A stretch of DNA of 64,000 nt, from NCBI GenBank assembly GCA_002011035.2, contig MTLY02000001.1, positions 1-64,000 on the forward strand, given 5' to 3'. The position numbers were made by a program, and so were the translations under genes. Source of the stretch: Candidatus Hecatella orcuttiae. Its GTDB lineage: Archaea > Thermoproteota > Bathyarchaeia > Hecatellales > Hecatellaceae. How positions within the stretch are numbered: position 1 is the stretch's first letter; each line of letters begins with the position of its first letter. This document shows, piece after piece, positions 2,469 through 45,389 of the stretch. Under the pieces are notes generated by a model. That model was not told where the DNA came from, did not search any database, and was given only the letters and a program-made list of their open reading frames with translations.

Positions 2469-3513
2469 AGCTGACCCTATAACGGATTAGAAACTCTCCT
2501 GCAACAATTAGAAGAAGCACCAGCGATTCGATGATGTTCACCAAAGCCACAGGTATGCCGACTGCCCGCTGCATCATGTCAGCTCCCACCAGTAAGCCTC
2601 CGAAGAAAATGGATGAAGCAATTACGCCGATGGGGTGTAATTTCCCCAATAACGCCACCACCACGGCTGTGTATCCGTATCCGGGGGATAAGCCAGGCAT
2701 GATTCTGTAATGAATGGCGGACACCTGAACCATGCCGGCGATACCCGCGAGGCCTCCGCTTATTATCACAGCTGGGATGATGGTTTTGAAGATGCTGATG
2801 CCTGCATAGCGGGCGGCTTTTATGTTGGCGCCAACGACTCGGATTTCATACCCTAACCTAGTTTTCATCAGCATCAAGTAGATGAGAACGGCGGCTATCA
2901 AGGCGAAGAAAATGCCCACATGCAGCCGAGAACCAGCTAGGTTGGGCAGTCTGGCGGCTTCGGTGATGATGGGGGACCACGGAAAGCCTTCGTACATCCA
3001 CGGCCCTACTAACATGTGGGTTACCCACAATATCGCTATGTAGTTCATCATCAGAGTGGTGATTATTTCATTTACTCTCAGCTTTACCTTCAAAACTCCC
3101 GGTATCATCCCCCAAAATCCTCCGCCCAAAAACCCTAGAAGCAACATGAAAGGAAGAAGAAAGGCAGCGTCAAGTTCGGAAAAAGCATAAGCAGCCCATG
3201 TGGCTGCGAAGGCTCCCATGTACAGCTGTCCTTCCGCTCCGATGTTGAAAAAGCTGCATCTAAAAGCCAAAGCGACACCCAAACCAGCCAGCATGAGAGG
3301 CGTTGCCTTGACAACTGTTTCGATTAAACCGAACCTGCTGCCGAAGGCTCCTAAAAATAGTTTCCCATAAGCCATCAGAGGGTTAACTCCGGAGGTGACC
3401 AAGAAAACGGCTCCTAACAGCAAAGCTAACAGGACACTGGACGCTGAAATAAGCAACTTCAAATAAAGGGAGGGAGAAGGCCGTTCAACTAACCTCAGCC
3501 GCAGTCGCTGCAT
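2452..3513 (-). CDS. ABC transporter permease, nucleoside/simple-sugar family
   Basis: FNIGAEGQLYMG, NEIITTLMMNYIA, GYGYTAVVVALLG; hydrophobic. Confidence 0.93.
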   Translation of the reverse strand: MQRLRLRLVERPSPSLYLKLLISASSVLLALLLGAVFLVTSGVNPLMAYGKLFLGAFGSRFGLIETVVKATPLMLAGLGVALAFRCSFFNIGAEGQLYMGAFAATWAAYAFSELDAAFLLPFMLLLGFLGGGFWGMIPGVLKVKLRVNEIITTLMMNYIAILWVTHMLVGPWMYEGFPWSPIITEAARLPNLAGSRLHVGIFFALIAAVLIYLMLMKTRLGYEIRVVGANIKAARYAGISIFKTIIPAVIISGGLAGIAGMVQVSAIHYRIMPGLSPGYGYTAVVVALLGKLHPIGVIASSIFFGGLLVGADMMQRAVGIPVALVNIIESLVLLLIVAGEFLIRYRVSFERGG

Positions 3514-34583: not shown

Positions 34584-36323
34584 GTGGTTCAATTTAAAGA
34601 ACTCTGCGAATTATGTGAGCGTTTAAGTCAAGTCTCCAGTAGAATTTCCAAGATAAACCTAGTAGTAGAATTTCTCAAAAGGGCAGACTTGGAGGAGATT
34701 TCTGCAGCCATTTCCCTTATCATGGGGAACCTCCCCAAAGCTTACGGGCAGCCTTTGAACCTCAGCCATTTGACTCTTTACCGCACTGTATTGAGGATGA
34801 CCAAGGTGGAGGAGGAGAAATTTTTCGGCGAATTTAGCCAAACAGGGGATGTAGGAGAAACTGTTAAGAGAATTCTCGAAAAATATCCATCTAAAACGCA
34901 AAAACTCCTCAAAGATGAGCCCATAACTTGCCGAGAAGTTGCTGAAGCCCTTCAGCAGATAGCGGAATTTACAGGAGCGGGCGCTCGGGTTAAGAAAGAA
35001 AGGCTGCTGGAAAGCCTCTTAGGCAGGGTAAGCCCGTTGGAAGCGAAATATTTGGTGAAGAATCTGCTGGGGGAAATGAGGCATGGATTCGGCGAAGGCC
35101 TCATGGAGGAAGCTTTAGCCAGAGCCTTCAATATCGGAGTTGAAAAGATCCGCATAGCCCACATGTCTATAGGGGACTTGGGGCGGCTGGGGAGACTGTT
35201 GAAATCCAAAGGACAGGCTGGTTTAGAGGCGGCGGTCATAGTTCCCTTTCATCCTGTAAAGCCTATGTTGGCCGAACATGCTGAAAGCTTAGAAGAAGTG
35301 CTTAGGCAGCACGGGGGAAAAACATGTTTAGAAGACAAGTTAGATGGGGTTAGAGTGCAGATTCATAAGGTAAACTCTGAAGTTCGCATTTACAGTCGAA
35401 GATTGACGGAGGTTACAGATTCTTTCCCAGAGGTCTCCAAGACGATAAAGGAGAAGGTGCAGGCAAAAGAAGCCATAATAGACGGGGAAATAGTAGCCGT
35501 GGATCATAGAGGCCGCTTTCAACCATTTCAAGAAATTATGAAAAGATACGGGCGAATTAAAGAGACCTATGACTTCGCTAAGCATGTCCCTGTCGCCCTC
35601 TTCTTATTCGATATTCTCCACCTAAACGGGATGCCTCTTATCGATAAACCCCTGATGGAAAGAAAAGCCATATTGGAGAAGATTGTTCCTTCGCGGATGC
35701 TTGTCCGCAGCCTAACCGCTGTAAGCCTCGACGAAGCTAGGAGATTTTTTGAAGAAGCCATAGGTAGAAGATGCGAAGGCGTTGTAGCCAAGCGTCCAGA
35801 TTCTACTTATACCCCGGGCATCCGCGGGAAAAAATGGCTGAAAATAAAGCGGCCTCCCTACACTTTAGATCTTGTAATTGTGGCGGCGGAGTACGGCTAT
35901 GGATATAGGCATAAGTGGCTTAGTGATTATTACCTGGCAGCAAGCGTTCAAGATGGTGAAAAGAAAGACTCACCCACAACCTTTCCAGAATACGTGGAAG
36001 CCTTCCATGGCGGCAAGTTTGAAATAGTTGGGAAAACTTTCAAGGGTTTGACTAACGAAGAAATCAAAACTCTCACCCAAAGGCTTCAAAACATAGCCCT
36101 CAAAACTGAAGGAAGGGCGGTCATAGTTAAGCCTGAAATAGTGGCGGAGATAGCCTTTTCGGAGATTCAGCGGAGTCCCCAGTACAGCAGCGGCTACGCC
36201 CTCAGATTCGCCAGAATCATCCGTATCAGAGACGATAAAACCGTAAGCGAGATCAGCAACCTGAAAGATGTTGAGCGAGTTTTCCTCACTCAGCATAGGG
36301 TCCAAGATTTTGGACGGGTATAG
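34584..36323 (+). CDS. lig: ATP-dependent DNA ligase
   Basis: PMLA, EDKLDGVRVQ (motif I), DGE, FDIL, EGVVAK, WLKIK, LRFAR..RIRDDK. Confidence 0.97.
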   Translation: MVQFKELCELCERLSQVSSRISKINLVVEFLKRADLEEISAAISLIMGNLPKAYGQPLNLSHLTLYRTVLRMTKVEEEKFFGEFSQTGDVGETVKRILEKYPSKTQKLLKDEPITCREVAEALQQIAEFTGAGARVKKERLLESLLGRVSPLEAKYLVKNLLGEMRHGFGEGLMEEALARAFNIGVEKIRIAHMSIGDLGRLGRLLKSKGQAGLEAAVIVPFHPVKPMLAEHAESLEEVLRQHGGKTCLEDKLDGVRVQIHKVNSEVRIYSRRLTEVTDSFPEVSKTIKEKVQAKEAIIDGEIVAVDHRGRFQPFQEIMKRYGRIKETYDFAKHVPVALFLFDILHLNGMPLIDKPLMERKAILEKIVPSRMLVRSLTAVSLDEARRFFEEAIGRRCEGVVAKRPDSTYTPGIRGKKWLKIKRPPYTLDLVIVAAEYGYGYRHKWLSDYYLAASVQDGEKKDSPTTFPEYVEAFHGGKFEIVGKTFKGLTNEEIKTLTQRLQNIALKTEGRAVIVKPEIVAEIAFSEIQRSPQYSSGYALRFARIIRIRDDKTVSEISNLKDVERVFLTQHRVQDFGRV

Positions 36324-36335
36324 TGCTCTCCAAAA
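36308..36335 (+). other. Putative left recombination site (attL-like)
   Basis: TTTTGGACGGG-TATAGT-GCTCTCCAAAA; the spacer contains the ligase TAG stop. Confidence 0.6.
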
Positions 36336-36443
36336 AATCGAAAACTGTGAAGTAGGAAGTTTTCCATAAATTTTCCGGATCTTTTCTTGTTGGAGGTTAG
36401 GGGGTAAAATGGAAAAGTTTTTGGAAATGAAAGGGCTCTTAAA

Positions 36444-36481
36444 ATTTTTCCGTATATATGCAGAGTGCAATACGGAAAAAT
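36444..36481. promoter_or_regulatory. Perfect 12-bp inverted repeat abutting the integrase BRE/TATA (operator or arm site)
   Basis: ATTTTTCCGTAT-N14-ATACGGAAAAAT followed by CCTTATATAA. Confidence 0.6.
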
Positions 36482-36494
36482 CCTTATATAACAA

Positions 36495-37550
36495 ATGAAA
36501 TCACCCATAATTATTCCGGTGGAAAACATGCAAGACCTCCTAGCCTACGAGTCTGTTCGATCTTGGATGAGCAATTTCCCAGACAGACCTAACACCAAAA
36601 AAGTCTATCTATTTAGGCTGTCTAAGTTCTGTCAGTGGATAGGGAAAGACCCTGACACCTTAATTCGAGAGGCTGAAAAAAATCTTTCCGCTGCACATAA
36701 TCAGCTGAAAGAATTCTACAATAAGCTGCTGGGAGAAGGTAAAAGTCTAAAGACAGCGAGCACATCTTATCAATGCTTAAGGTCTTTCTATCGCTGGAAT
36801 GACGTGATCCTGCCTCGGGCACCGCGAAGTTTCAAAGGCCGGGTAGAATTCGCCTCCCGACGAGTTCTAAGCCAGCAGGAAATCAGCATTATGGTAGGTG
36901 CATGCTCCACCATAAGAGACAAAGCTCTGATAACCTTCCTAGCTCAATCTGGCCAGCGAAGCGGGGTTTTAACGGCTTTAAAATATAAACATGTAAGAAG
37001 AGGACTTGAAAATAATGAGAACCCGCTGCTGGTGGAAGTTCCAGCTGTGCTTAGAAATGACAAAGGAATTAACATCAACAAGCTGGGTGAAGCCTACAGG
37101 TTTGCGGTAGGGAGAGACTCGATCATGTTTTTGAAGATGATGATAGAAGAACGTCGAAGGGACGGTGAACCTATCGACGGGGAAAGCTGGCTTTTTAGGA
37201 GCTACTCTAAAGGCGGTGAAAACGGAAAGTCGACGCCTACAAAAATTTCTAAAAGTGAAAGGGGTCCCCCTTTAACATCTGTTTCCATCAGAGAAATAGT
37301 TCACGAGGTCGCCCTAAGAGCTGGAATTCAAGGGAAGGCCTCGGATAAACGCTACGAGATATATCCTCATGTCTTCAGGAGATACTGGAACATGAGAATG
37401 CAGGAAGCAGGCCTCAGCGAAGATTTAAGGGAGTATATGATCGGGCATAGAGTCCCCTACGAGGGCGCCTACAGTAGATGGTATCCCGACGCCATAAGGC
37501 GGGAATGGAAAGCTAAAAATGTCGAAAAATATCTCAGCCTTCTCTTATAA
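36495..37550 (+). CDS. Tyrosine recombinase/integrase with N-terminal core-binding domain
   Basis: RDKALI.FL.QSGQR (Arg), PHVFRR (HxxR), MIGH, YEGAY (Tyr). The start could be ATG 36528, given the TATA position. Confidence 0.93.
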   Translation: MKSPIIIPVENMQDLLAYESVRSWMSNFPDRPNTKKVYLFRLSKFCQWIGKDPDTLIREAEKNLSAAHNQLKEFYNKLLGEGKSLKTASTSYQCLRSFYRWNDVILPRAPRSFKGRVEFASRRVLSQQEISIMVGACSTIRDKALITFLAQSGQRSGVLTALKYKHVRRGLENNENPLLVEVPAVLRNDKGININKLGEAYRFAVGRDSIMFLKMMIEERRRDGEPIDGESWLFRSYSKGGENGKSTPTKISKSERGPPLTSVSIREIVHEVALRAGIQGKASDKRYEIYPHVFRRYWNMRMQEAGLSEDLREYMIGHRVPYEGAYSRWYPDAIRREWKAKNVEKYLSLLL

Positions 37551-37565
37551 ACGCCTCTCCAGTTA

Positions 37566-37805
37566 TTAGGGCGAAGAGGAGATGTCCCTAAATTTATTAT
37601 ACTTTAGTAGGGTTTTTTTGGATGCTCGCTGAATTATCAGTTTCCTATTTTTAATTTTAACACTAACCCATACTAGGTCTTCTTTGAAGGGGAAACTTGA
37701 GTCGTCAACCAACTTTGTTGGCAGATAGATTCTCGGCGAAGAATAGCTTCGTCCATTTTTCAGCAGTTTTTTTGCTACGGTAAATTTTGCCAGACACTCT
37801 TTCAA
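37566..37805 (-). CDS. Small basic protein, possibly AbrB/MazE-like swapped-hairpin DNA-binding
   Basis: 79 aa; the pattern PRIYLPTKLV..FPFK..V.V.I....LII resembles the AbrB fold. Confidence 0.6.
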   Translation of the reverse strand: MKECLAKFTVAKKLLKNGRSYSSPRIYLPTKLVDDSSFPFKEDLVWVSVKIKNRKLIIQRASKKTLLKYNKFRDISSSP

Positions 37806-37856
37806 GGCTTATCACGTTTTACTTCGTAAATACTGTTTCAATATCATTAGAAAAGT

Positions 37857-38288
37857 TTATAAAATTTTCCTTCGCAAAAATCTCAGAAAATCTAGCTTAC
37901 TTAAAACTCCTTTCTGCTGAAAGTTTTCAGGTGGAACGGATTTTTTGAGCGGCCTTACTGAGTCAATGACGGAATTATGTATAAATCGTAATATTTCTTC
38001 TTCAAGCTGATTAAAATTTGGAATAAAAACGTAAATGTTGGAAGGAATATATACCATAAAAGGTAATCTGAGTGTATTAGAGTAAAGGCCCTCGGAGGTT
38101 TTTGTGTATATCTTCAAGCTGATTTCCTCCCGATCACGCGGTGACTGGTCTGGGTTATACTCTATTTCAAACGTCCATTCTTGGGGAAGCCTGCGTTGCA
38201 AATATTTCTTCAGAAGAGTGACTAGAGTTTCCCCGTATTTTAAGGCAAACTCCTTCCTTTCTCGTAGGGGTATGGGAAACTTGGGCAC
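37857..38288 (-). CDS. Hypothetical protein
   Basis: 143-aa ORF, co-oriented with the AbrB-like gene; no recognisable motif. Confidence 0.55.
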   Translation of the reverse strand: MPKFPIPLRERKEFALKYGETLVTLLKKYLQRRLPQEWTFEIEYNPDQSPRDREEISLKIYTKTSEGLYSNTLRLPFMVYIPSNIYVFIPNFNQLEEEILRFIHNSVIDSVRPLKKSVPPENFQQKGVLSKLDFLRFLRRKIL

Positions 38289-38509
38289 CTTTCGCCATCT
38301 CCACCTTGAACTAGGCTCACCAGTGGTAAAGTCTACGGAAGCACATAAGTTTATTTAAGCTTGAATAAGCGACTTGGAACTGCTAAGTTGCAACTTATAT
38401 TAAATAGTGTTGAAAGTTGAAGGAACAGAACCTGAGTAACGTAGGTTTGTGCCCCTTTGCAGAAGTTTTCCGTAATCTTGTTTTTTGCGCGTCTCCGCCG
38501 TTTTCGATT

Positions 38510-38537
38510 TTTTGGACGGTTATTAAACCCTCCAAAA
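38510..38537 (+). other. Putative right recombination site (attR-like)
   Basis: TTTTGGACGGT-TATTAA-ACCCTCCAAAA; overlaps the perfect 22-bp palindrome ACCCTCCAAAATTTTGGAGGGT (38527-38548). Confidence 0.6.
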
Positions 38538-38583
38538 TTTTGGAGGGTAGAAGCGTGATGCGTCCCAGCTTTGCAGATTGACC

Positions 38584-39057
38584 TCATGATTCCAGTTCTT
38601 TCAAAATAGCATCAACAACCCGAAGACCGGCTTCCCGAACTTTCGCCGTTATCCGCTTCGTGAAGACGGAGAAATCTTTTATTTCTATGGCGTAGACCAC
38701 TATTTCTTTCGGCATTCTATTGGGAGCATAGTTTTCACCAAGTCTTAAAGCGGTGGCGAAATTCAAGTCATGGGAGGAAGAAAGGTGACGGGTGCTGTCA
38801 AACTCCGAGGGGGAAAGCCTAAATATTCGGCCTACCTCAGTCTTTCCAGTTGCTATGGCGTCTACAACTATCACTTTATCGTAGTCCAGCATTTCCTCTA
38901 TGAGCCTTAATCCTCCCGCACTGGCCTCCTTGACATCGATGTCTGTGCGGCGGCGCAACCGTTTTTTTAAATCTCGAGCAACCTGTATGCCTATCCCATC
39001 GTCTCCTAAGATTTCATTGCCTACGCCCAGTATCAAAGTTTTCAACTTGATCTTCAA
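38584..39057 (-). CDS. Hydrogenase maturation protease
   Basis: LGVGNEILGDDGIG, IVVDA, SSH. Confidence 0.93.
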   Translation of the reverse strand: MKIKLKTLILGVGNEILGDDGIGIQVARDLKKRLRRRTDIDVKEASAGGLRLIEEMLDYDKVIVVDAIATGKTEVGRIFRLSPSEFDSTRHLSSSHDLNFATALRLGENYAPNRMPKEIVVYAIEIKDFSVFTKRITAKVREAGLRVVDAILKELES

Positions 39058-39151
39058 CAGATCAGTAAGCGATGGGCAGATAAAGATTACGAAGTAAACT
39101 TCCAGCGCCTAAATATAAAATAGAGGAATAGTTAAACTTCAAAATAAAAAA

Positions 39152-40612
39152 TTAGAAGCGCGTCAACCTCTTCTTGAGCTTTCCGCGACTATCGTAAATG
39201 TCAACTTCAAGAGGCATCTGACCGGGCAGCGTGTGGGTGGCGCAAGCGAAACAGGGATCGTAGGCTCGGAAAGCCATTTCCACCATGTTTAGTATTCCCG
39301 GCGACACTTCACCGTTCTTGATTAACCCCTCTGCCGCTTTTTTAATGGACATGCATATAGCGGCATGGTTATTGGTAGTACCCACTATAAGGTTAACTTT
39401 CTGCACGATCCCCCTTTCATCAGTCTGATAATGGTGGTAAAGAGTGCCACGGGGAGCTTCAACAACGCCTACTCCCTCGCTAGGGGTCTCAGTTATTGGT
39501 CTTCTAACGTTCGGATCTGTTATTTCAGAATCTTGGCTGAGTTCCAAGAGTCTTTCCGCAGCGTAAAGCAATTCCACCAAACGGGCCCAGTGAAAGGCTA
39601 GGGTAGCATGCACGGGCTTTCCGCCTAAGGTTTCGTATAGTTTTTCATACTGCTCCTGAGCAAGAGGCGTCGCCATTCCGTCCGCGGCGTTAAGCCGTGC
39701 GAGAGTGTTGGCGCGGTAGACTCCGCTGTTTTTACCGTCTACAAAACCCTTCCATCCCACTTTTTTTAGGTACGGGAATTTCAGGTAAGACCAAGGTTCC
39801 ACTCGTTCTTCAAGATGATTTAAATAGTCGGAGGCTGGGAATTTCACGAACTCATTGCCGTCCGGGTCTACAACCCTGATTTTTCCGTCGTAAAAGTTCA
39901 CTCGGTTTTTGTCGTCCACCAGACCCATGTAGTAGGTTTTGTGCGTGTAAGTGTCTCCGGTGATGAGGTCCACGTAGGTCTTGTTTTTGAGGACTATGTC
40001 TTCAAAAAGTTTCAAGGAGAACTGCGCAAATTTGACTTCCTCTTTTGCCATTTCCTCTATTCTAGCTCTTTCCGTTTCTTTCAAGGGCTTACTTATTCCG
40101 CCGGGAACACCGAAAGTTGGATGAACTTTCCTCCCGCCGATCATGGACACGATCTCCAAGGCGTCCATTCGCTGTTTTATCACGTACTTTCCGGCTTCCA
40201 CACCTACTTTACGTATCACGCCGAAGATGTTTCGCTCCTCCGGAGGCGCCTCGGGGCCGACGACGAAGTCGGGGCCGCCTAGAATGTAAAAATGAGTGGT
40301 ATGATCGTATACGTAGAAAGCACTGTAGAGGAGTTCCCTGAGTTTTTTAGCCGCGGAACTAGGCTCCACGTTGAAAACAGCATCTAATGTTTTGGTGGAG
40401 GCCATATGGTGGGCTTCAGGACAGACACCGCAAATGCGCGCGGTTATGTCCGGCATTTCCTCTACAAATCGGCCTTCGCAGAATTTTTCGAAACCCCTTA
40501 GCTCGGGGACTTGGAAGTAGGCATTGGCCACATTGCCTCTGTCGTCTAGAAAGATACTTATTTTCCCATGACCTTCAAGCCGGGTTATAGGGTCTATGGT
40601 TACTGTTTTCAT
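39152..40612 (-). CDS. mvhA: [NiFe]-hydrogenase large subunit, group 3c
   Basis: [33 protein letters not shown] plus a cleavable extension. Confidence 0.95.
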
Positions 40613-41565
40613 TTTCTTACCCTCCCAAGAATGGATTTGGTTAGAGTAAACTTGTAGAACTTACCTAGGGGGTCTATTACTTTGCCTAGGGCTTCCTTTA
40701 TCTCCTCTTCATCTGTGGAATCCAAGTTTGAGGCTAAGGCCGAAAGCATCTTGGCGCCTTGGTCTTCAATGTTAGGCGAAGGCCCATAGCATCCCCAACA
40801 AGGCATGTTAGCCTTGGGGCACAATGCCCCACAGCCCCCTCTCGTGGCAGGCCCCATGCAGATGACACCTTGCTCTAGAAGGCACTGCTCTTGGTCGGGG
40901 ACGATTTCGTAAGGTCGGTAGATGGTCTTGAATTTGTTCCCCAATCTTTTCCTTTCACATTCATGGCAAAGCGCCCTGTCTGAGGCTCCCACAACTGAGC
41001 CTTTCGGCGGCAGTTTCCCGCTGACGATGGCTTGGATGGCATTCCAAACTTGCTCTCCAACAGGCGGGCATCCGGGAACATAATAGTCCACATCGACAAC
41101 TTCGTCGAGGGTGGAAACATTTTCCCTCAACTCAGGTAACTCCAACTCCCCTTCAGGAATTGAGTATTTCGGCTGAGGCTCCACCTTTTCCGGATTGATT
41201 GTGCTTGGAGTTTCATGGTAGGCTCTGGTGAAGATGTCTTTGACGGTGGTGGCGTTTCCTAAGCCGGGGATACACCCATCTACGGCGCAGGAGCCGAAAG
41301 CTATCATCACCTTAGACTTAGCCCTCAGAAGCTTAGCTACATGCTCATCTTCGCGATTACGAATGGCCCCGTTGAAAAAGCAAACGTCTATGCTTTTGTC
41401 TTCCATTTTCTCCACATCGGAAAATTTGAAGTCCACAGCCGCAGGCCAGAAGACTATGTCAGCAACAGCCATGACATCCAATACTTTTTCCCCTATTTCG
41501 AGAACTGATATTTCGCAGCCTCCGCAGGAAGCAGCCCAGTAGAAGCCCAGTTTCAACTTTCCCAT
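40609..41565 (-). CDS. mvhG: [NiFe]-hydrogenase small subunit
   Basis: SCGGC, GSCA, PGCPP, CHEC, CLL..G.ICMGPAT.GGCGA.CP....CWGC. Confidence 0.95.
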   Translation of the reverse strand: MGKLKLGFYWAASCGGCEISVLEIGEKVLDVMAVADIVFWPAAVDFKFSDVEKMEDKSIDVCFFNGAIRNREDEHVAKLLRAKSKVMIAFGSCAVDGCIPGLGNATTVKDIFTRAYHETPSTINPEKVEPQPKYSIPEGELELPELRENVSTLDEVVDVDYYVPGCPPVGEQVWNAIQAIVSGKLPPKGSVVGASDRALCHECERKRLGNKFKTIYRPYEIVPDQEQCLLEQGVICMGPATRGGCGALCPKANMPCWGCYGPSPNIEDQGAKMLSALASNLDSTDEEEIKEALGKVIDPLGKFYKFTLTKSILGRVRK

Positions 41566-41567
41566 TT

Positions 41568-41999
41568 TTACCGTCCCTCCTTCTTGCCAGTGTTCCAGTT
41601 TAACGGCCCTAGTTGTCTGATTTTCTCTGTCATCTCATGAACTGTTTTGGCGAATTTTTCTCCCTCGGAGGCTGAGATCCATTCTAGCCTCACTCTCTCT
41701 TTCTCTATGCCGAACTGCTCCAGAAGCCTTGAAAGGAGAGTGTACCTTTTTAACATCATATAGTTCCCTTCCATGTAGTGGCAGTCTCCCGGGTGGCATC
41801 CTGCAATGAGAACTCCGTCAGCCCCTTGGGCTAGAGATTTAATTACGAATGTTGGGTCTATTCTGCCTGTGCAGTTAACTCGGATCGTGTACACGTTAGG
41901 TGGGTATTCCATCCTGCTTGTACCAGCCAAGTCGGCTCCCGCGTAGGCACACCACCGACACAGGAAACCGATTATTTTAGGTTCAAACTTCTCTCCCAA
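41568..41999 (-). CDS. mvhD: Hydrogenase [2Fe-2S] subunit D
   Basis: GFLCRWCAYAGADLAG, CTGR, GCHPGDCHY..GN, WISASEG. Confidence 0.96.
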   Translation of the reverse strand: MGEKFEPKIIGFLCRWCAYAGADLAGTSRMEYPPNVYTIRVNCTGRIDPTFVIKSLAQGADGVLIAGCHPGDCHYMEGNYMMLKRYTLLSRLLEQFGIEKERVRLEWISASEGEKFAKTVHEMTEKIRQLGPLNWNTGKKEGR

Positions 42000-42014
42000 T
42001 CAAAACACCCCTTT

Positions 42015-45000
42015 TTAAGTGGCCAAAATTCCCTCCACTTCCGCGTAAATCTGTTTATCTGTGAAACCTTGCTGTTTAATGGCGCTTGAAGGACATGCGG
42101 CAACGCAGACCCCGCAAGCTTTACAGAGGGTTTCTTGCACCACCGCCACTTCTTTTTCCTCGTCAAATTCTATTGCATTAAAGGGACAGGCTCGAATGCA
42201 AACCCGGCAGGCGGAGCAAAGGTTCTCATCAACTACCGCTATATCTGGCTCAACTTCCACTTTACCACGGTCGATAAGCGAGAGCGCCTCAGCTGCAGCT
42301 GCTCCTCCTTGAGCCACCGAGTCAGGTATGTCTTTAGGCCCTTGGCAGGCTCCTGCTATGTAGATGCCGTCGTTGGCCGTGGAGACTGGGGCTAACTTCG
42401 GATGTCTTTCTAGGAAGAAGCCGTCTCTGCTTCGGCTGAGAAGGAATGTTTTAGCGATCTTGTCGCTGTCTTTCCTCGGCTCCAAGGCTACGCTGAGAAT
42501 GACCATGTCCACCGGAATCCGCCGCACTACTCCGAGGAGGGTGTCCTCGCATACTACGATGAGTTTTCCCTCTTCTTCTGGGGTTTCAGCGAAATCTGTA
42601 ACCTCAGCGCCCTTACCTCTTATGAAAATCACTTCCTCGTTCATCACTCTCTTATAGAATTCTTCATACCCTTTGCCGAAGGCTCTGATGTCGATGTAGA
42701 GTTCGTAAACTTTAGCATCGGGTAGTTTCTCCCTAACTAGGTGAGCGAATTTCATGGACTGCATACAACATATCCGGGAACAATATTCGTGGTAGTTTTC
42801 ATCCCGGCTTCCGACGCAGTGGAGGATGGCTATGCTTTTAGGTGCCTCTCCGTTTTTGAGGGTTATCTTACCGCCAGTAGGCCCTGAAGCATTGCACATC
42901 CTCTCAAATTCGAGTGAGGTTACAACATTATCATAGACTCTATAACCGTACTGCCGAGCGATAGAGGGATCGAAAACGTCGAATCCTGTGGCTACAATGA
43001 CGGCTCCAACATCTATCTCCATCACTTCATCTTTCATCTCATGGTTAATTGCCTCCAGATCGCAGGCTTTAACGCATTCCAAGCATTCGGAACATATTCC
43101 GCAATCCATGCAGCGGTCAGCTTCACTTTTAGCTCGCTCGATGTCATAGCCTCGGACTACTTCGCTGAAATCTTTTATCCGCGCGCTAGGCTCTGCAACT
43201 TGAGGCTCAATCCGCTCCTGAACAGGGAAACGTTCTCTGAATTCCGCGATCTGCTCTTCGCTAGGTTCACGGGGAGCCTTCACTTCTTCCGGGGTGGGAG
43301 CTAAAGGCTCTCCTTTCAGGTATCTGTCAATGGACTGGGCGGCCTTTCTACCAGCAGCCATGGCATCGATGACGGTGGCAGGACCAGTTACCACGTCTCC
43401 TCCTGCGAATACACCTTCCAGATTGGTGGCTAGAGTGGCCTCGTCGACCTTCAGCGTCCCCGCGGGGGAAAGCTCTAAGCCTATCTCTTTGACGAATTCT
43501 AGGTCGGGTGTTTGGCCTATAGCAGCGATGAGGTTGTCTACTTCGATGGTGAATTCTGAACCTTCAATGGGAATAGGCCGCCGGCGCCCGCTGGCGTCAG
43601 GAGGGCCTAACTCCATCCGGATACATTCCACTTTTGATATTCGGCCTTTCTCCGCAATGATTCTTTTCGGAGCCACGAGGAACGTTAATTTAACGCCTTC
43701 CATTTCAGCAGCGTGAACTTCCTCCTTGCTGGCAGGCATCTCTTCGCGGGAACGCCTATAGAGAATAGTTGTAGAACTCCCCAGCCTAACTGCCACTCTA
43801 GCAGCGTCGATAGCAGTGTTTCCTCCGCCGACGACCACCACCCTGCGTCCCAGCTGAACTTTTTCACCCATGTTCACTCTGCGGAGAAAATCTAGGCCGG
43901 GGATAACGCCTTCCGAGTCTTCCCCAGGAATTCTGAGGCTCACACTCCGCTGAGCCCCTGCAGCCAAGAAGATGGCCTGGTATTTTTTCTTCAATTCCTT
44001 AAATCGAATCTGTTTTCCTACTTTAACGTTTGTCTTAATTTGCACTCCAAGCTTTTCAATGTAGCCAATGTCCTTGCTGAGGATGTCTCTGGGAAGACGG
44101 TAGGCGGGTATCCCCATCCGCAGCATTCCACCCGGTTCGCTAGCAGCTTCGAATATGGTGACATCATATCCCATGAGGGCTAGGTCATGAGCTGTGGTAA
44201 GACCTGCTGGACCTGAGCCTATGATGGCGACTTTCTTACCGTTTTTAGTTATGGACGGTATCTCTATTTCTTCAACATCAACCTGGTCAGCTGCAAATCT
44301 TTTGAGGGCGGCTATAGACAGAGGCTCGTCGACATATCTGCGGTTGCAGACGTTTTCACAGGGATGATAGCACACCCGGCCGCAGACGGCAGGGAGGGGA
44401 TTAGTTTTCCTGATGAGCTGGTAAGCTTCTTTGAATTTACCTTCAGCGATGAGGGCTAGATACCCCTGAACATCTTGATGGATGGGACAAGCTAACTTAC
44501 AGGGTGGAGTCTCCTTTTTGGAGATGAGGAAAGTATGAGGAACTGCCTGGGGAAACGGCATGTAAATGGCCTTGCGAAGGCCGAGGCCTAAGTCGAATTC
44601 GCTGGGTACTTCAACTGGGCAGACGTTGAGACATTCTCCACAAGCAGTGCATTTTTCAGGGTCTACGTATCTGGCTTTCTTTCTGATTTTGACCTTAAAG
44701 TTGCCTGCGAAACCTGAAAAGCCTTCAATCTCACTGTAAGCCAGTAGCTCAATGTTGGGGTTACTTCCAACCAAAGACATCTTGGGAGTGAGTATGCATG
44801 CAGCACAGTCTAGAGTTGGGAAAGTTTTATCAAACTGCGCCATGTGGCCGCCTATGGTGGGCTCTTTTTCTACTAGGTAGACTTTTTTACCGGAATCAGC
44901 AACTCTAAGAGCCGCCTCGATCCCGGCTATGCCTCCGCCCACAACCAATGTGTTCGGGTTCACACTGAAAGTTTTGATCTCCAAGGGCTCATGATGGGAA

Positions 45001-45389
45001 ACTCTTCTCACGGCAGCTGCTACCAGTCTTTTAGCTTTCTCCGTTGCAGCTTTACTATCCTCCGTAACCCATGAATCCTGCTCCCTGATGTTTGCCATCT
45101 GGAACAGGTACGGGTTCAAGCCTGTTTCATTCAAAACGCGCCTGAAAGTCTGCTCGTGCATCAGCGGTGAACATGAGGAAACAACGATGCGGTTTAAACC
45201 GCATTCCCTGATGTCTTTTTTGATCAAGTCTTGGCCTGGATCAGAGCACATGTATTTGTATTCTCTTGCCACCACAACTCCTTTTAGTTTAGAAGCAAAC
45301 TCTGTTACTTCTTGAACGTTCACTGTCCCTGCAATGTTCGTCCCACAATGGCATATGTAGACTCCAATTCGCTCTTCCACCAAATTCAC
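42015..45389 (-). CDS. hdrA: Heterodisulfide reductase subunit A with inserted GltD-like NAD(P)/FAD module (HdrL-type)
   Basis: GVYICHCGTNIA, NIREQDSW, GGGIAG, DKTFPTLDC, HCVGSRD..YCSRICC, GACQGPKDI. The insert has PPC..ACP, GRVC.HPCE..C, GSGPAG and GGGNTA.D..YRR. Confidence 0.95.
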   Translation of the reverse strand: MNLVEERIGVYICHCGTNIAGTVNVQEVTEFASKLKGVVVAREYKYMCSDPGQDLIKKDIRECGLNRIVVSSCSPLMHEQTFRRVLNETGLNPYLFQMANIREQDSWVTEDSKAATEKAKRLVAAAVRRVSHHEPLEIKTFSVNPNTLVVGGGIAGIEAALRVADSGKKVYLVEKEPTIGGHMAQFDKTFPTLDCAACILTPKMSLVGSNPNIELLAYSEIEGFSGFAGNFKVKIRKKARYVDPEKCTACGECLNVCPVEVPSEFDLGLGLRKAIYMPFPQAVPHTFLISKKETPPCKLACPIHQDVQGYLALIAEGKFKEAYQLIRKTNPLPAVCGRVCYHPCENVCNRRYVDEPLSIAALKRFAADQVDVEEIEIPSITKNGKKVAIIGSGPAGLTTAHDLALMGYDVTIFEAASEPGGMLRMGIPAYRLPRDILSKDIGYIEKLGVQIKTNVKVGKQIRFKELKKKYQAIFLAAGAQRSVSLRIPGEDSEGVIPGLDFLRRVNMGEKVQLGRRVVVVGGGNTAIDAARVAVRLGSSTTILYRRSREEMPASKEEVHAAEMEGVKLTFLVAPKRIIAEKGRISKVECIRMELGPPDASGRRRPIPIEGSEFTIEVDNLIAAIGQTPDLEFVKEIGLELSPAGTLKVDEATLATNLEGVFAGGDVVTGPATVIDAMAAGRKAAQSIDRYLKGEPLAPTPEEVKAPREPSEEQIAEFRERFPVQERIEPQVAEPSARIKDFSEVVRGYDIERAKSEADRCMDCGICSECLECVKACDLEAINHEMKDEVMEIDVGAVIVATGFDVFDPSIARQYGYRVYDNVVTSLEFERMCNASGPTGGKITLKNGEAPKSIAILHCVGSRDENYHEYCSRICCMQSMKFAHLVREKLPDAKVYELYIDIRAFGKGYEEFYKRVMNEEVIFIRGKGAEVTDFAETPEEEGKLIVVCEDTLLGVVRRIPVDMVILSVALEPRKDSDKIAKTFLLSRSRDGFFLERHPKLAPVSTANDGIYIAGACQGPKDIPDSVAQGGAAAAEALSLIDRGKVEVEPDIAVVDENLCSACRVCIRACPFNAIEFDEEKEVAVVQETLCKACGVCVAACPSSAIKQQGFTDKQIYAEVEGILAT

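Follow-up and report, generated by a model that had tools for sequence, protein, structure and literature searches.

In the genome of Candidatus Hecatella orcuttiae, an archaeon of the order Hecatellales (class Bathyarchaeia), a block of about 2.2 kb lies between two palindromic sites at the 3' end of an ATP-dependent DNA ligase gene (lig). The block consists of a tyrosine recombinase gene (int) and two small genes, ORF79 and ORF143; replication or transfer genes were not found in it, and its GC content is 41.6%, compared with 45-49% in the flanks. We tentatively regard it as an old, largely immobilised and minimal integrated recombinase cassette that occupies a conserved docking site. The DNA analysed, called the window below, is a stretch of 64,000 nucleotides (positions 1 to 64,000 of contig MTLY02000001.1, assembly GCA_002011035.2). 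It belongs to a metagenome-assembled genome of 1,747,726 bp in 3 contigs, which we designate G000; G, C and L numbers denote genomes, contigs and loci, and g and f numbers genera and families.

The paired sites and their recombinase

Every sequence that an earlier note on the window had quoted was found where it had been placed, and the Xer/dif-like geometry that it had recognised, two 11-nt inverted arms around a 6-nt spacer, was confirmed in both cores. The left core reads TTTTGGACGGG-TATAGT-GCTCTCCAAAA (36308-36335) and the right one TTTTGGACGGT-TATTAA-ACCCTCCAAAA (38510-38537). In a repeat search these two form a 28-nt direct pair of 79% identity with a spacing of 2202 bp; the same search returned a 52-nt inverted pair (36301-36352 and 38493-38544, 75% identity) and a perfect 11+11 palindrome at 38527-38548. 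As had been claimed, the inner arms of 17 bp complement each other perfectly, and the left site does coincide with the end of the ligase gene, whose last codons run into it and whose stop codon (TAG, 36321-36323) falls within the left spacer. The spacers of the two cores agree at 3/6 positions. A degenerate 28-mer pattern that covers both cores has 2 matches in the whole genome and its reversed control has 0, which excludes chance and makes the observation a real one.

Each site, 42-45 bp long, is composed of two 14-bp palindromes of the type TCCAA-W4-TTGGA that are 27-28 bp apart from start to start; comparison with the relatives reveals between them a 13-14-bp centre that is first G-rich, then AT-rich and then C-rich. 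In the window, the variant TCGAA is found in the inner palindromes and the TTGGA type in the outer arms, and this arrangement is a hybrid, attL/attR-like signature. The centres agree at 8/14 positions in direct orientation versus 4/14 in inverted orientation (manual count). As in an attL/attR pair, direct core repeats stand at both ends of the block, with int 150-180 bp from the left site.

Such an arrangement suggests a likely mechanism. Int monomers would bind the inverted TTGGA-containing arms that flank a 6-7-bp centre, cut at the edges of this centre and exchange strands through a Holliday junction. Recombination of the left with the right site would then yield a circle of about 2.2 kb, whose junction would carry two TCGAA-type arms, and excision would leave a single TTGGA-type site at the 3' end of the ligase gene; the reverse reaction would integrate the circle. 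Hybrid sites, with TTGGA-type arms outside and TCGAA-type arms inside, are the product expected of such an integration. Because the centres now differ, the exchange should today be hindered.

The recombinase itself appears to be intact, as the earlier note had proposed. The gene probably starts at the position chosen by the gene callers, which gives a protein of 340 aa; an upstream ATG at 36495 would give 351 aa. The protein matches PF00589 over residues 124-319 with 38 bits (cut-off 27.1), has weak N-terminal SAM-like matches in Pfam and also matches the integrase family phrog_1. In an alignment of 20 sequences, R144, K185, R284, H307 and Y315 (340-aa numbering) are invariant and H281 is nearly so; these columns we take, from what is known of the family, to be the six catalytic positions (R-K-H-R-H-Y), and all six residues are present. 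No PDB chain matched Int by sequence. Identity with canonical XerA was considered and rejected: the best NCBIfam match is the XerA model NF040815, with 61.9 bits against a cut-off of 220 and its best stretch at residues 32-167, and XerS was not among the NCBIfam matches. The relatives of Int outside the order include one of 42% identity, which adjoins a tRNA 3' fragment and appears frameshifted, and two on viral contigs at 33-35% identity.

The conserved region upstream of int contains several repeats. The motif TTTTCCGTA is enriched in the block, 3/23 of its genomic copies falling within these 2.35 kb; AGTTTTCCATAA stands at 36358-36369, the inverted pair ATTTTTCCGTAT / ATACGGAAAAAT at 36444-36455 and 36470-36481, and the TATA-like CTTATATAAC immediately before the start of int. 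In G002, G006 and G007, as judged by eye from an alignment, an inverted repeat occurs at the position of window 36444-36481 with a differing sequence; fixed in position and variable in sequence between genera, this repeat suggests a co-evolving operator. In G006, the 11-6-11 site is a perfect palindrome.

G000 also contains related palindromes outside the window. A third double palindrome, TCCAAAAAATTGGA twice at a distance of 34 bp, lies at C3:696115-696162 (L064:5116-5163) within a CRISPR-cas locus of type I, where a Cas6-like gene lies on one side of it and cas2-csa1-cas1-cas4 on the other; it is about 410 bp upstream of cas2, and an array of 61 repeats follows cas4. A single palindrome (13 bp in G000) is conserved between a gene of 154-169 aa and an HD-domain gene in the four genera g1, g5, g6 and g7 (G000 C2 ~354,050-354,080; G004:C12:4205; G005:C5:17133; G006:C8:19297), with orc1 and the canonical origin boxes about 2 kb away. 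A role of the palindromes as origin-recognition boxes was rejected: the canonical origin beside orc1 (C2 ~351.5-352.0 kb) uses boxes of the TTCCAGTGGAAA type instead.

Residency at one locus in Hecatellales

An int orthologue of 62-65% identity was found, in one copy each, in 9 of the 14 genomes of the order (G000 counted) and in 7 of the 8 that are at least 90% complete. The carriers span five genera (g1, g3, g5, g6 and g7) and have a common gene order: a CDP-archaeol-synthase-like gene, a pyruvoyl-dependent arginine decarboxylase-like gene (named from sequence; PvlArgDC below), lig, the double palindrome and int. In g3 the ligase is missing from the locus, and site and int directly follow PvlArgDC; in G005 a scaffold gap of 100 N (L049, 2960-3059) covers the expected end of lig and the int-proximal site. 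The ligase is the second paralogue of the G000 genome, the other being at C2:238663. Its orthologues (50-57% identity) adjoin int in 6 other genomes, and all 7 genomes of the order that have this ligase carry int beside it. Between genera Int is 62-65% identical, the ligase 51-55% and PvlArgDC 52-76%. In other families of the class, PvlArgDC and lig occur together without the site and without int.

A single-copy int, at one locus in five genera, as conserved as its neighbours and with no empty site to be found, is not an IS-like jumper (IS, insertion sequence). Neither the multiple copies nor the varied positions of an insertion sequence were seen in any of the nine carriers, and the behaviour of the block is not that of the IS-sized mobile element proposed in the earlier note. 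That note had itself suggested a search of the relatives for the empty site, and the outcome, none in the order, is close to what it had named as speaking against its view. It had also suggested a search for similar sites in the flanks of the homologues of int: a double palindrome does lie upstream of int across genera, but the other genera have no right site directly after the module.

What lies beyond int also varies. The window has both ORF79 and ORF143 and g3 has neither; homologues of ORF79 follow int in 3 genomes of g5 (57-64% identity) and homologues of ORF143 in g6 and g7 (56-63%). The ORF143 homologue of G006 (L053, ~2733-3083) has an in-frame stop and is either a pseudogene or an assembly error. 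A second double palindrome is found in g6 4.6 kb downstream, beside tRNA-Gln(CTG), and G002 has a single palindrome near the same tRNA-Gln. ORF143 itself belongs to no Pfam, NCBIfam or PHROG family and is known from only 4 clusters among 5.8 billion proteins, all of the Hecatellales lineage, its closest relative, on a contig of 2.2 kb, being 78% identical. It is modelled as a helix, a four-stranded sheet and a helix (predicted local distance difference test, pLDDT, 68); a fold search of the PDB with this model gave no match (best E 0.14).

In a maximum-likelihood tree the nine Int proteins of Hecatellales form one group (86/86) and follow the host genera, apart from that of G009. This genome belongs to g6, but its Int nests in the g5 clade (99/97), whereas its ligase groups with that of its congener G005 (100/98); the DNA of G005 and G009 is 58-71% identical over int and 77-86% downstream. 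One replacement of int between genera is thus detectable from the sequences. G008 and G009, of different genera, have the g5-type int allele in common, and both carry between site and int (L051, L052) a LAGLIDADG-like open reading frame of 130-131 aa, which scores 23.3 and 20.0 bits in G009 and G008, in that order, against a cut-off of 23.1. The replacement may have been brought about by a homing endonuclease. Overall, the pattern is that of an old resident: site and int have been inherited mostly vertically at one locus across Hecatellales, in single copy and under purifying selection.

These results bear on the literal view of the earlier note, that the block is a currently active IS-sized tyrosine-recombinase element which excises and reinserts in present-day populations. 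Such an element would be in keeping with an int that is intact, with terminal inverted arms that match perfectly over 17 bp, with direct cores and with a lower GC content, and likewise with the horizontal replacement of int and the presence of CTCCAAAAAATTGGAG by a half site on virus-like contigs binned with G005. We nevertheless judge it very unlikely, given the single copy in every genome, the same locus in five genera with no empty site, an Int tree that otherwise follows the host genera, the heterologous spacers and the host's CRISPR spacers, of which 0/80 match the block, the loci of the relatives or the virus-like contigs beyond chance matches of 12-17 nt. Assembled contigs of four public runs from four further studies (X4-X7) span both junctions of the integrated state, and none of their joints bypasses the block or closes it into a circle; contigs, however, drop rare variants and are therefore uninformative on excision. 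In run X5, the window organism's contigs stop at 36296 and resume at 36315. A metagenome scan with the 28-mer core returned 67 stretches, none with similarity to the window in DNA or in the int, lig or ORF143 proteins, and all are thus chance matches.

Viral sequences offered little more. In IMG/VR the double palindrome is found on 1 contig only, as a run of AACTCCAAAAAATT repeats in a contig of 115 kb. The virus-like contigs of G005 (C96, C114 and C121; L067, L068 and L069) are related to one another, 2.6-3.6 kb long, and carry CTCCAAAAAATTGGAG and the half site between genes; a phage-type glycosyltransferase (phrog_4356, E 8e-45) is encoded on them together with a P-loop ATPase, and they may be pieces of a viral or plasmid genome with the same palindrome.

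Features of the block and its flanks (window coordinates)
Feature	Position	Strand	Description or basis
ATP-dependent DNA ligase (lig)	34584..36323	+	Pfam DNA_ligase_A_N/M/C, E 5e-59
Left site (attL-like)	36301..36345	no strand	outer palindrome TCCAAGATTTTGGA, centre CGGGTATAGTGCTC, inner palindrome TCCAAAAAATCGAA(AAC)
Conserved int upstream region	36356..36491	no strand	repeats and motif enrichment
int, 340-aa tyrosine recombinase	36528..37550	+	PF00589
ORF79, small conserved protein	37566..37805	-	without family match
ORF143, Hecatellales-only protein	37857..38288	-	without family match
AGTTTTCCGTAA, subterminal motif copy near right end	38464..38475	+	repeat search and motif count
Right site (attR-like)	38503..38547	no strand	inner palindrome TTCGATTTTTTGGA, centre CGGTTATTAAACCC, outer palindrome TCCAAAATTTTGGA(GGG)
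Hydrogenase maturation protease (HycI family)	38584..39057	-	PF01750, E 1.5e-14

The protease gene forms the right flank of the block, with its 3' end toward the right site. It opens a stretch (window 38584-45389) in which large- and small-subunit-like hydrogenase genes and an MvhD-like gene follow, all named from sequence and only the protease with a Pfam match.

The double palindrome in other families

A strict double-palindrome pattern matched 33/301 genomes of Bathyarchaeia, mostly once per genome, versus 0/301 for the reversed control; the sites of G000 itself fail this pattern and are not counted among the 33. By family, the strict site occurs in 7/13 genomes of f1, 22/44 of f26, 2/15 of f16, 1/2 of f23 and 1/1 of f5. 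In all ten f26 loci first examined it follows an HD-domain gene, an ORF79 homologue (49-59% identity to that of the window) and a gene for p147, and on its far side lies a small tyrosine recombinase gene of one of three unrelated-looking types (PF00589, E 6e-15, 2e-8 and 3e-6), one type being accompanied by a GIY-YIG gene. A fourth type, an integrase of 359 aa, occupies the same slot in G082, and 13/13 f26 genomes examined have a PF00589 gene, one of these four types, beside the site. In 5 of 7 f26 loci, followed for up to 20 kb, a second, degenerate double palindrome follows at a distance of 1.6-2.8 kb, immediately behind a conserved gene of 127-139 aa; its form, TTCAATTTATTGGA-N13-TCCAGTTTWTTGGA, is itself conserved. 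In one such pair (L181) the centres agree at 8/13 positions directly versus 2/13 inverted (manual count). No duplicated site was seen by eye around the f26 recIII/GIY-YIG insertion, and homology of MPRR with the g80 wHTH-like protein was not supported (BLASTP E 2.3).

In f5, G017 has two double palindromes at a distance of 1.5 kb, and between them a serine recombinase gene (PF00239, E 1e-27) alongside a MazE/PIN pair. A solitary site, with no recombinase gene nearby, occurs in G280 and G288 next to the conserved ORF79-like/p147 genes; it fills the narrow space between two stop codons, those of convergent p147 and wHTH-like genes. Different small recombinase genes beside a conserved site suggest a docking slot in which cassettes lodge and are occasionally replaced, and the recurrence of a two-site recombinase architecture of about 2 kb, together with the solitary sites, fits a conserved docking site for small cassettes. 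The discrete element that the earlier note had drawn is supported in part: two direct sites with hybrid arms bound the block, and the architecture recurs in two other families at 1.5-2.8 kb. The mobile behaviour attached to it was not found.

ORF79 has no Pfam, NCBIfam or PHROG family, and its family alignment has the invariant motif Y-x-SPRIY-x-P-x-K...D-S-x-FPF. Its description as AbrB-like could not be verified: there is no Pfam match (PF04014) at E up to 1, and a profile of 20 sequences matched none of the AbrB/MazE chains of the PDB at E up to 10, so that the sole lead of this type is a language-model score of 0.86 to a cluster with MazE in 16% of its members. The structure model (pLDDT 47) is too poor for a fold search. 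The best PDB match of the profile is a stretch of 36 residues of poxvirus type IB topoisomerase (2h7f, 1a41; E 0.07-0.11) with KLTDDSS in common, a weak match that may be due to chance; the catalytic lysine hairpin presumably lies in that stretch. In 89/301 genomes of the class ORF79 has a single-copy homologue; one of them is G001, a member of Hecatellales without int or site, and, contrary to the earlier note, ORF79 is thus not cargo of the element in the usual sense. In loci of other families where both are found, ORF79 is 0.1-2.3 kb from the double palindrome, and in our own comparison it is present in 28/33 strict-site genomes, which are related, so that the count is not a statistic of independent cases. 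Its partner in other families, p147 (140-150 aa, e.g. L165:1050-1484 and L189:4809-5237), has no Pfam family; its C-terminus has a proline-rich linker and then, at the extreme end, a conserved R/K-Y-T a few bases before the double palindrome.

In a broader formulation, the locus would be a universal recombinase slot of several Bathyarchaeia families: a constant double-palindromic locus, often beside an ORF79-like/p147 pair, at which unrelated tyrosine or serine recombinases are lodged and swapped, sometimes with homing endonucleases. We hold this generalisation to be unlikely.

As unlikely, in our estimate, is that the locus is a resident multimer-resolution module similar to XerS/difSL or to the res/resolvase systems of plasmids, with the double palindrome as a dif-like site, the recombinase as its dedicated resolvase and the extra copies as relics. 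Resolution systems with either tyrosine or serine enzymes are known. The strict-pattern site is usually single in its genome, its 11-6-11-like dyad is symmetric at 24/44 inner positions (manual count), and synteny and purifying selection hold order-wide. Canonical XerA is missing from the related genomes, of which 0/41 exceed the cut-off of NF040815, and in G002 and G004 the int orthologue is the sole match to this model. The recombinase gene adjoins the site, as it does for XerS in the part of the published account available to us (PMC2958812), and the sites of G280 and G288 lie between convergent genes. These two genomes, however, have no recombinase gene near the site, and 16/41 related genomes have no tyrosine recombinase match at all, so that dependence on such an enzyme is not general in the class; the strict site, moreover, is present in only 33/301 genomes. 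Instead of a single dif, G000 has three double sites, two of which are 2.2 kb apart around int; Int falls far short of the XerA cut-off and does not have XerS among its matches. Finally, neither the gene strands nor the cumulative GC skew gives a clear terminus signal here, in a genome of 3 contigs.

A quite unlikely but coherent alternative treats the palindromes as operators of a dimeric DNA-binding protein (ORF79-like, wHTH or a host factor), which would repress int and the ORF143-ORF79 operon, perhaps by looping. Perfect palindromes of 14 bp are typical of the sites of dimeric proteins, and many of the positions suit a promoter: the two window sites are 150-215 bp upstream of the inward transcription units int and ORF143, the third double site of G000 precedes the cas2-csa1-cas1-cas4 genes, the single palindrome near orc1 is conserved upstream of its 154-169-aa gene, and both sites of G017 are 25-60 bp upstream of antitoxin genes. 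An ORF79 homologue is also near the site in three further families. The site of G288, on the other hand, is 5 bp and 2 bp from two convergent stop codons, which is no promoter position, and that of G280 is arranged alike. ORF79 and the site can each occur without the other: in g3, g6 and g7 the double palindrome is kept with ORF79 in 0/5 genomes, and G001 has ORF79 and no site. One to three sites per genome are few for a regulon, and the centres keep a dyad symmetry and an AT-rich middle resembling a crossover core.

It is extremely improbable that the block is an invertible switch, in which Int would flip the 2.2-kb segment between its inverted arms, as the 52-nt inverted pair and its perfect 17-bp core might suggest. 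Invertible segments of the Hin/Gin or Fim type, of kilobase size, have palindromic sites with inverted arms at their ends and a recombinase gene inside or next to them, and the block resembles them in having its recombinase in a kilobase segment between such sites. Unlike them, it has no orientation polymorphism (int has the same orientation relative to PvlArgDC and lig in 9/9 genomes, and recII-MPRR in every f26 locus examined where they occur), its centres match directly and not invertedly, and nothing at its borders suggests a promoter or gene-fusion logic; the two neighbouring genes have their 3' ends toward the block, so that flipping would regulate nothing obvious.

Several of our observations nevertheless weigh against an immobilised cassette at a docking site, the interpretation that we prefer. 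Tyrosine and serine recombinases ordinarily recognise very unlike sites, yet both kinds are found between these palindromes. A selfish element that no longer moves would not readily account for the lasting purifying selection on int, and the order-wide synteny of site and int speaks against a simple mobile element. The heterology of the spacers argues against an efficient exchange between left and right sites. Within the order, neither an empty site nor any presence/absence polymorphism was found; G001 and G003, which have no int, also have neither the site nor this ligase. A second site directly after the int module occurs in the window only, most genomes of the order showing the int-proximal site alone, and one of the genes between the two sites, ORF79, is the class-wide gene that G001 also possesses. 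In f26, furthermore, the first site consists of two canonical palindromes and the second of two variant ones, and these are not hybrids of the integration type.

Known systems and significance

Integration hot spots that receive varied elements include tRNA and tmRNA genes and dif, the latter used by integrative mobile elements exploiting Xer recombination (IMEX) such as the CTX phage and the gonococcal island; IMEX elements use the Xer enzymes of the host and carry no recombinase. The docking site resembles such hot spots in that one conserved sequence is reused, slightly different duplicated sites flank the insert and the occupants are replaced over time. It differs from those of IMEX in that each block carries its own recombinase, and its occupants measure only 1.5-2.8 kb.

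The parallels with XerA/dif of archaea and XerS/difSL of streptococci, as far as the available parts of the sources describe these systems (PMC2958812, PMC8371274), are an inverted 11-6-11-like core and the use of one recombinase, which has a SAM-like domain at its N-terminus and lacks an arm-binding domain. As with XerS, the recombinase gene adjoins its site and, as with both, the system is chromosomal, vertically inherited and usually has one site per genome. From XerA it is set apart by the low score of Int, and from both systems by the extra outer half-sites of its site, by the 2-3 sites of the window genome, two of them flanking int, and by its absence from some genomes of the class.

The kind of element to which we tentatively assign the block is that of the cryptic integrated elements of Thaumarchaeota, among them the 2.6-kb NitUzo-E2 (Krupovic et al. 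2019, PMC6563490); for this set, the accessible part of that paper reports insertion at the 3' ends of protein-coding genes. Like these, the block is kilobase-sized, resides in an archaeon of the TACK group and combines direct att repeats with an integrase and a few small proteins, without recognisable replication or transfer genes. Unlike them, to judge from the same part, it is fixed at one locus across a whole order, its att site is a double palindrome of 42-45 bp instead of a short direct repeat, this type of site is common to cassettes with unrelated tyrosine or serine recombinases, and one gene inside it is a single-copy gene of the class at large. In the portions available to us, the literature on integrases, mobile elements and tyrosine recombinases with inverted repeats in Bathyarchaeia contained no description of the site.

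Bathyarchaeia are abundant and uncultured, and to our knowledge their mobile DNA and their chromosome-maintenance systems have barely been charted. With its defined 42-bp site and a handful of recombinases, the locus lends itself to testing in vitro and, whether cassette or resolution module, such compact archaeal pairs of recombinase and site are candidate tools for genome engineering. Were the slot to be the missing dif-like site, or an essential cis-element read by a shared small protein, the result would be a system of resolution or docking whose catalytic subunits are interchangeable, and we know of no precedent for this. If the locus is a resolution module, it would explain how chromosome dimers are resolved in a class without XerA. 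If instead the block is the immobilised cassette that we favour, it would establish the smallest class of archaeal integrated elements, and the conserved docking site in which it lodges would be usable as a marker.

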